DNA of 14,825 nucleotides from Escherichia coli (GTDB lineage Bacteria; Pseudomonadota; Gammaproteobacteria; Enterobacterales; Enterobacteriaceae): assembly GCF_044324875.1 (NCBI RefSeq), contig NZ_CP172189.1; one strand, 5' to 3'. Below, piece after piece: positions 5,229 through 5,523 of the stretch. Both the position numbers and the translations under genes were made by a program. The notes under the pieces were generated by a model that made no database searches, was not told the origin of the DNA, and saw only the letters and a list, made by a program, of their open reading frames with translations. How positions within the stretch are numbered: the stretch's first letter is position 1; every line of letters starts with the position of its first letter.

Positions 5229-5523
5229 ATAGCACAAAGAACACTTATAATTTATCATCTCACAGCTATAAATATAAAAGAATAATATTCTAAACTACAG
5301 TTATTTATGCAGAACATAACATCAAACTCACAATAAATATAAAACAATTATTTTATAACTGTTCACTTATTATATTCAGACATATCAGAAACACGACTCA
5401 ATTCTTTTTTATTTAACAAAATCCATAAAAAACTTATGGTTGAAATCACATTTAAACTGTGAAGGATATCATCCGGAGAAATTTTTCAATCCGACACTCC
5501 ATAGAATGGACCTTTAAGACTTT

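Follow-up and report, generated by a model that had tools for sequence, protein, structure and literature searches.

What is a very AT-rich stretch of DNA doing in a colicin plasmid of Escherichia coli? The stretch lies at positions 5280-5450 of a 14,825-nucleotide piece of contig NZ_CP172189.1 (RefSeq assembly GCF_044324875.1), which was analysed as a whole and which we call the window. A first-pass annotation had singled it out as extremely AT-rich, placed it inside an island, and proposed that such a segment acts as a DNA-unwinding element, as curved DNA, as an H-NS-bound promoter region or as an insertion hotspot. The compositional claim is confirmed, with 77.2% A+T in the stretch versus 51.4% in the whole window, and both of the runs that the annotation quoted are present in the sequence, one starting at 5336 and the other at 5268, 12 bp ahead of the given start. 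The base fractions of the stretch are.44 A,.33 T,.16 C and.06 G. It ranks in the top 0.4% of 171-bp windows by A+T and is the top compositional outlier of the window. Classical ColE1, taken for comparison with the plasmid pool, has a 171-bp maximum of 73.7% AT, and no segment of that length in it reaches 77.2%. Dinucleotide-preserving shuffles of the window (n=200) never gave a best 171-bp value above 69% AT. The stretch is a real compositional outlier, of an ordinary kind.

The outlier is somewhat larger than first drawn. The AT-richest 171-bp window starts at 5267 (80.1%) and the maximal-scoring AT segment, which has the top score in the window, is 5245-5456 (212 bp, 78.8% AT). In full, the AT-rich segment runs from about 5230 to 5456, reaching about 35-50 bp to the left of 5280. 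Homology bounds a spacer at 5230-5435 (206 bp, 77.7% AT), of which 5280-5450 is the core. This tract is poor in G, with a C/G ratio of 2.6-3.2 and a GC skew of about -0.37, and it holds 13.7 TpA steps per 100 bp compared with 5.1 for the window. No other 100-bp segment of the window forms a weaker duplex than 5267-5366, which also falls here (-1.06 versus -1.40 kcal/mol per step). The AT-rich tract hardly varies among plasmids of the window's own type. An internal direct repeat (5268-5293 and 5333-5358) was considered and set aside; it is not conserved in the homolog described below and is not significant for AT-rich DNA (E 0.14).

The plasmid context is that of a composite of ColE1-family replicons, with RNAI genes at 9-113 and 8919-9021. 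Positions 1 to about 8910 match 8.9-kb colicin E1 plasmids, e.g. pPK8275-8kb and pSMS35_8. Classical ColE1 (NC_001371) aligns with positions 1-3614 and 5936-9170 of the window, and BLAST against it shows that 3615-5935 is absent from that plasmid, so the annotation was correct in placing the stretch inside an island. The main features are as follows.

Positions 358-2264: imm and colicin.
Positions 2524-3461: exc1 and exc2.
Positions 3466-3495: cer core.
Positions 3615-5935, no strand: the island of 2321 bp relative to classical ColE1, between the cer region and the mbeA stop codon.
Positions 4164-5800, no strand: a module shared with IncK2/Z plasmids at about 80% identity, unannotated in RefSeq, without a conserved ORF and holding the spacer.
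Positions 5934-7833, minus strand: mbeA and other mob genes, with rop next in gene order.

Beyond the second ori and RNAI gene, positions 9170-14825 carry cui, followed by only the last ~215 bp of a colicin Y gene. An IS21-family element occupies about 10107-12743 (istA 10225-11871, istB 11645-12643), and after it come a truncated mbeA, mbeC, rop and ori, 99.7% identical to classical ColE1. The window looks like an IS-mediated cointegrate of ColE1-type plasmids.

The module makes up about 1.6 kb of the island. A counterpart of positions 4260-5800 is carried, at about 80% identity, by IncK2/Z (MPF_I) conjugative plasmids, where it is set among IS elements between the relaxase-pemIK region and trbC. 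Among the 5426 complete E. coli genomes scanned, 36 carry the module, and they carry it on plasmids only. Scans of genome contigs, viral contigs and metagenomes returned no sequence types beyond the same two, the sole match in a phage collection was an unrelated 55-bp piece, and the region is not mentioned in the ColE1 plasmid-evolution paper.

Of the two ~80%-identical alleles of the module, one is carried by small ColE1-type plasmids and was counted in 22 genomes; the other, counted in 20, is carried by large plasmids, mostly of the IncK2/Z type. The hosts are mostly poultry-associated. Both occur together in six strains (135, EF5-18-41, GF43, PKF11, PKF4 and LH10-b-1), where about 0.08 would be expected among the 5426 genomes. 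This co-occurrence could be due to shared ecology and mobilisation, or to a functional link.

Inside the island, at 3926-4163 (3926-4205 when drawn more widely), 231 bp survive from the left end of an IS3-family (IS1203/IS629-like) element, its OrfA (HTH_Tnp_1) truncated. The IncK2/Z homologs have a full or partial IS3-family element in the same relative position, which suggests that the island (3768-5801) arrived entire, in a single syntenic block. A 55-bp piece at 4181-4235, situated between this fragment and the left hairpin of the inverted repeat described below, shares 87-89% identity with a segment found in early stx1 records of Stx1 phages of the H-19B/933J type, and with many STEC chromosomes.

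What, then, surrounds the AT-rich tract within the module? The features on which the rest of our argument turns are these.

Positions 5060-5090, plus strand: intrinsic terminator T1 (CCCCCTC-CGGAATT-GAGGGGG, then TTTTCTTT), from a terminator scan and kept in the homolog.
Positions 5204-5230, plus strand: intrinsic terminator T2 (ACCCCCC-TTATAC-GGGGGGT, then TCTTTAT), from the terminator scan, the left bound of the spacer.
Positions 5230-5435, no strand: the AT-rich, G-poor non-coding spacer, recognised by its composition, lowest duplex stability, lack of a conserved ORF and low identity to the homolog.
Positions 5259-5286, plus strand: sigma-70 promoter-like site CTCACA-16-AATAAT, from a promoter scan, with the -10 at 5281-5286.
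Positions 5413-5440, plus strand: second promoter-like site from the scan, TTAACA-16-TATGGT, directly upstream of U3 and overlapping its start.
Positions 5419-5435, no strand: positions homologous to the IS1 and ISCro1 insertion sites of IncK2/Z relatives, from junctions in L006 and L007.
Positions 5436-5553, plus strand: conserved unit U3, about 118 nt, a candidate small non-coding RNA that starts ATGGTTGAAAT and ends in T3.
Positions 5524-5553, plus strand: terminator T3 of U3, a stem at 5524-5544 and a T7 run, found in both versions of the module.

Around the spacer, in 4700-6000, there are seven terminator-like sites versus 0.8 expected, all on the plus strand, and the three strong ones (T1, T2 and T3) are all retained in the IncK2/Z homolog, T2 with a G-U change. 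In the window, two homopolymers are 1 base shorter than in most near-identical relatives, the C-run of T2 (5205-5210, six versus seven) and the T-run of T3 (5545-5551, seven versus eight); these may be sequencing differences.

To the right of the spacer, U3 is 86-96% identical to its IncK2/Z homolog. A 1-nt indel in the homolog breaks the U3 ORFs of at least 16 aa on either strand, and the sole ORF common to both versions is one of eight codons at the 5′ end. In the predicted fold, two small hairpins and an A/U-rich single strand precede a strong terminator. Taken alone, U3 has no significant fold (z -0.5 to -1.5), and the substitutions between its two sequence types, the only ones found, lend no covariation support to the structure. 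With its spacer it resembles Hfq-type sRNA genes, which consist of a promoter, short stem-loops and a Rho-independent terminator: it has no retained ORF of at least 16 aa, ends with a strong U-run terminator after an A/U-rich single strand, and is much better conserved than the spacer upstream. Unlike them, it has no Rfam family or covariation support and a poorly defined promoter, and is a candidate only. Three scans with Rfam 15 gave chance-level matches (E at least 0.08, far below gathering scores).

The spacer itself behaves quite differently from these neighbours when compared with the IncK2/Z homolog. Together with a few flanking bases (5225-5438) it is the least conserved part of the module, with 48-64% identity and indels, whereas the flanks at 5125-5225 and 5464-5540 are 88-96% identical to the IncK2/Z copy. 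The lengths of the two spacers are similar, 206 bp in the window and 217 bp in IncK2/Z. In IncK2/Z the homologous spacer has 66.4% A+T, and it overlaps the segment in which A+T peaks in those loci (70.8%). We found no stable RNA fold in the window's spacer (z +0.7). A protein-coding reading was rejected: apart from two minus-strand ORFs of 30 and 28 aa, which are disrupted in the homolog, the spacer has none. Beside the tract, a 108-aa minus-strand ORF at 5452-5778 is frameshifted in the homolog, and Pfam and NCBIfam gave nothing for it or for the other ORFs of the non-coding module.

One short piece of the spacer is an exception to its divergence. This sole well-conserved patch, 16 nt at 5276-5291 (AAAAGAATAATATTCT), includes the -10 AATAAT of the left promoter-like site, and the counterpart of that site in the homolog L018 (7990-8017) is TTGATC-16-AATAAT, with an identical -10. 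The site next to U3 is weak in the homolog (GTGATA-16-GATGGT). The proposed promoter region thus has one positionally conserved promoter-like site; such sites are not above chance frequency (6 versus 3.0 +/- 1.8 expected).

We favour, with moderate confidence, the reading that the tract is the core of a non-coding intergenic spacer of ~206 bp that bears a promoter and belongs to an IS-associated accessory module common to ColE1-type colicin plasmids and IncK2/Z plasmids. The spacer would then be the promoter and upstream region for plus-strand transcription of U3. Transcription could start near 5293, from the promoter at 5259-5286, giving an RNA of ~260 nt, or near 5447, from the promoter at 5413-5440, giving an RNA of ~105 nt. 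The A+T richness would make open-complex formation easier and the region a likely target of H-NS. IS insertions may be tolerated or attracted by the spacer, as in the relatives, because it is easily deformed and dispensable. Several results given above count against this reading: the sites are not enriched, the one proximal to U3 is weak in the homolog, U3 does not fold significantly, and the extreme A+T content is not conserved. The high divergence, moreover, fits a spacer without function equally well.

That second interpretation is possible, if less than probable. It says that the tract is a decaying spacer between blocks that are or once were functional. Its sequence would have no specific role and would drift as selection is relaxed and mutation biased towards A+T. 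This would account for its being the most diverged part of the module, for its indels, for a shift in A+T as large as that from 66% to 78% between the versions, and for the dearth of motif enrichment, ORFs and structure; the relatives, too, tolerate IS insertions in it. What a decaying spacer explains less well is that the 16-nt patch with its -10-like hexamer is conserved in place and that the length has been kept. In addition, the adjoining U3 needs a promoter from somewhere.

Elsewhere in the module, on the minus strand, 4630-4755 holds a further, strong sRNA-like unit, with a promoter TTGATA-18-TATGAT (4755-4726) that reads TTGCCG-18-TATGAT in the homolog. The predicted RNA of ~90 nt (4719 to 4630) comprises a 5′ hairpin, a single-stranded core at 4660-4709 that is 100% conserved, and a terminator hairpin at 4636-4660 with a U-run. 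Folding gives it z-scores of -4.2 (window) and -4.3 (homolog). A compensatory C-G to U-A change is present in the terminator stem, and the loop is inverted in the homolog.

The module also contains repeats. A 54-nt imperfect inverted repeat has arms at 4235-4288 and 5031-5084 that are 74% complementary, the right arm including T1. Each arm hosts a GC-rich terminator hairpin, these pointing outward on opposite strands, and about 850 bp without a conserved ORF lie between them. No target-site duplication is visible at the repeat, which could represent two divergent units with paralogous 3′ ends. A motif, CMRGAAACRCG, occurs in eight copies in the window where 1.7 are expected (0 of 200 shuffles reach eight); seven of these are in the island (4392-5907), four of them as the arms of two long hairpins, 4382-4464 and 4536-4597. 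The copy at 5385, TCAGAAACACG, is not conserved in the homolog. Long flanking segments have fold z-scores of -5.7 and -4.4. Long structured RNAs in the flanks were nevertheless rejected, as a permutation test of the substitutions against the MFE structures showed that base pairs are not preserved. A possible exception is the non-proposed plus strand of 4332-4720 (11 versus 16.4, P 0.02, uncorrected).

A bolder form of the promoter reading would make the tract the regulatory spacer of one gene in an undescribed plasmid-borne sRNA cluster, made up of the 4719-4630 unit, plus-strand units ending in T1 and T2, and U3. The co-residence of the two alleles would fit a mobilisable plasmid and its helper that compete, or engage in cross-talk, through RNA. 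We consider this rather unlikely.

Does H-NS act here? Judged by composition, an H-NS-bound promoter region is plausible. Taken further, the tract might be an H-NS nucleation and silencing patch, in which AT-rich DNA flanked by curved DNA silences the acquired island; this is compatible with the promoter reading, though we think it improbable. The preference of H-NS for AT-rich DNA is established (PMC5493358, PMC9678765), and a tract with 78% AT and so many TpA steps would suit it. Under the Bolshoy wedge model, curvature is unexceptional inside the tract (mean 7.7, maximum 14.3 degrees per turn), which speaks against the earlier proposal of curved DNA for the stretch itself; the peaks flank it at about 5125 and 5551, in keeping with a silencing patch, and bending in the window is greatest over the 150 bp of 5034-5183. 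The high-affinity H-NS motif is not enriched, with one match (two mismatches) compared with 0.96 expected.

Comparable regions are known from E. coli. The superhelically destabilised (SIDD) regulatory regions upstream of genes such as bglGFB, flhDC and glpFK, where H-NS binds and IS1 and IS5 insert, are likewise strongly AT-rich and have the lowest local duplex stability (PMC5493358, PMC9678765). The spacer shares with them a place upstream of a candidate transcription unit and IS insertions, IS1 among them, in relatives. It differs in that its insertions are found only in the 80%-identical homolog, at a palindrome missing from the window. More generally, AT-rich, destabilised and H-NS-prone upstream regions are documented targets of IS elements (PMC5493358).

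This leads to the possibility that the main property of the tract is to be an insertion hotspot, its low duplex stability making it a preferred target of transposition. In IncK2/Z relatives, IS1 (9-bp duplication AAAACCACA, in nine records) and ISCro1 (8-bp duplication AGGAAACG, in one record) have inserted independently of each other at neighbouring base pairs, just 5′ of ATGGTTGAAAT, where the homologous spacer has its right edge. Both sites fall within the promoter-like site next to U3, in the interval that separates its -35 from its -10. A third element, of the IS3 family, entered another AT-rich patch of the module (about 74% AT) at about 4325-4332. These events and the lowest duplex stability in the window are what the idea has in its favour. 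However, the region amounts to 13% of the module, and two hits there out of four IS events are not a significant excess. The target in the relatives is one arm of a palindrome, perfect over 17 bp, which has been lost from the window via a 7-nt gap. The fourth element, ISEc12 (IS21 family), hit the GC-rich hairpin of T1 at about 5070; it is found in L009 (pNRZ14408_3), an otherwise 98% identical small plasmid, where the left part of the module has been removed. The hotspot proposal has partial support, from the IncK2/Z relatives only. In 23 close relatives that carry the window's own version, the spacer is free of IS elements. For the window's sequence the idea is reasonable and weakly supported, and as the principal explanation of the tract we think it improbable.

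The excess of C over G raises the question of whether the tract is a zone of Rho-dependent termination, where unstructured, untranslated plus-strand RNA reading through T2 would load Rho and so protect the convergent mob operon. The base skew, the lack of RNA structure and of ORFs, and the mob genes converging from the right are all in keeping with this. That said, C makes up only about 16% of the bases, and three intrinsic terminators already stand on the plus strand; we regard a Rho zone as very unlikely.

Finally, the tract is the easiest-melting duplex of the window, and in this respect, as in its A+T richness, it is like the DNA-unwinding elements of oriC and of iteron origins. It is unlike them in having no DnaA boxes, 13-mer repeats, iterons, IHF site or initiator gene, on a plasmid that uses ColE1 RNAII/RNAI elsewhere. 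Counts of DnaA boxes, IHF sites, 13-mers, Fis sites, GATC and ArgR boxes in the tract do not exceed the shuffle expectation, GATC is absent, no tandem repeats occur, and 5200-5470 holds no match resembling a XerC/XerD core. Near the tract we found no Rep-like ORF and no Pfam or NCBIfam match, and RNAI is present only at the two positions given above. The annotation's DNA-unwinding element was rejected on these grounds, and a second, cryptic origin or an oriT at this place, which has low duplex stability as its one argument and poor conservation as a further point against it, is effectively excluded.

Taken by itself the AT-rich spacer matters little. AT-rich DNA between genes is commonplace, and nothing marks this tract as an origin or other specialised site. 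It serves rather as a signpost to a 1.6-kb module that is rich in conserved terminators and hairpins and that poultry-associated E. coli carry both on mobilisable colicin plasmids and on conjugative ones of the IncK2/Z type. The sRNA-like units beside the spacer, which are undescribed, are a more interesting lead than the spacer. If these neighbouring units are real sRNAs, the spacer would control their expression, for example through silencing by H-NS or disruption by IS elements.
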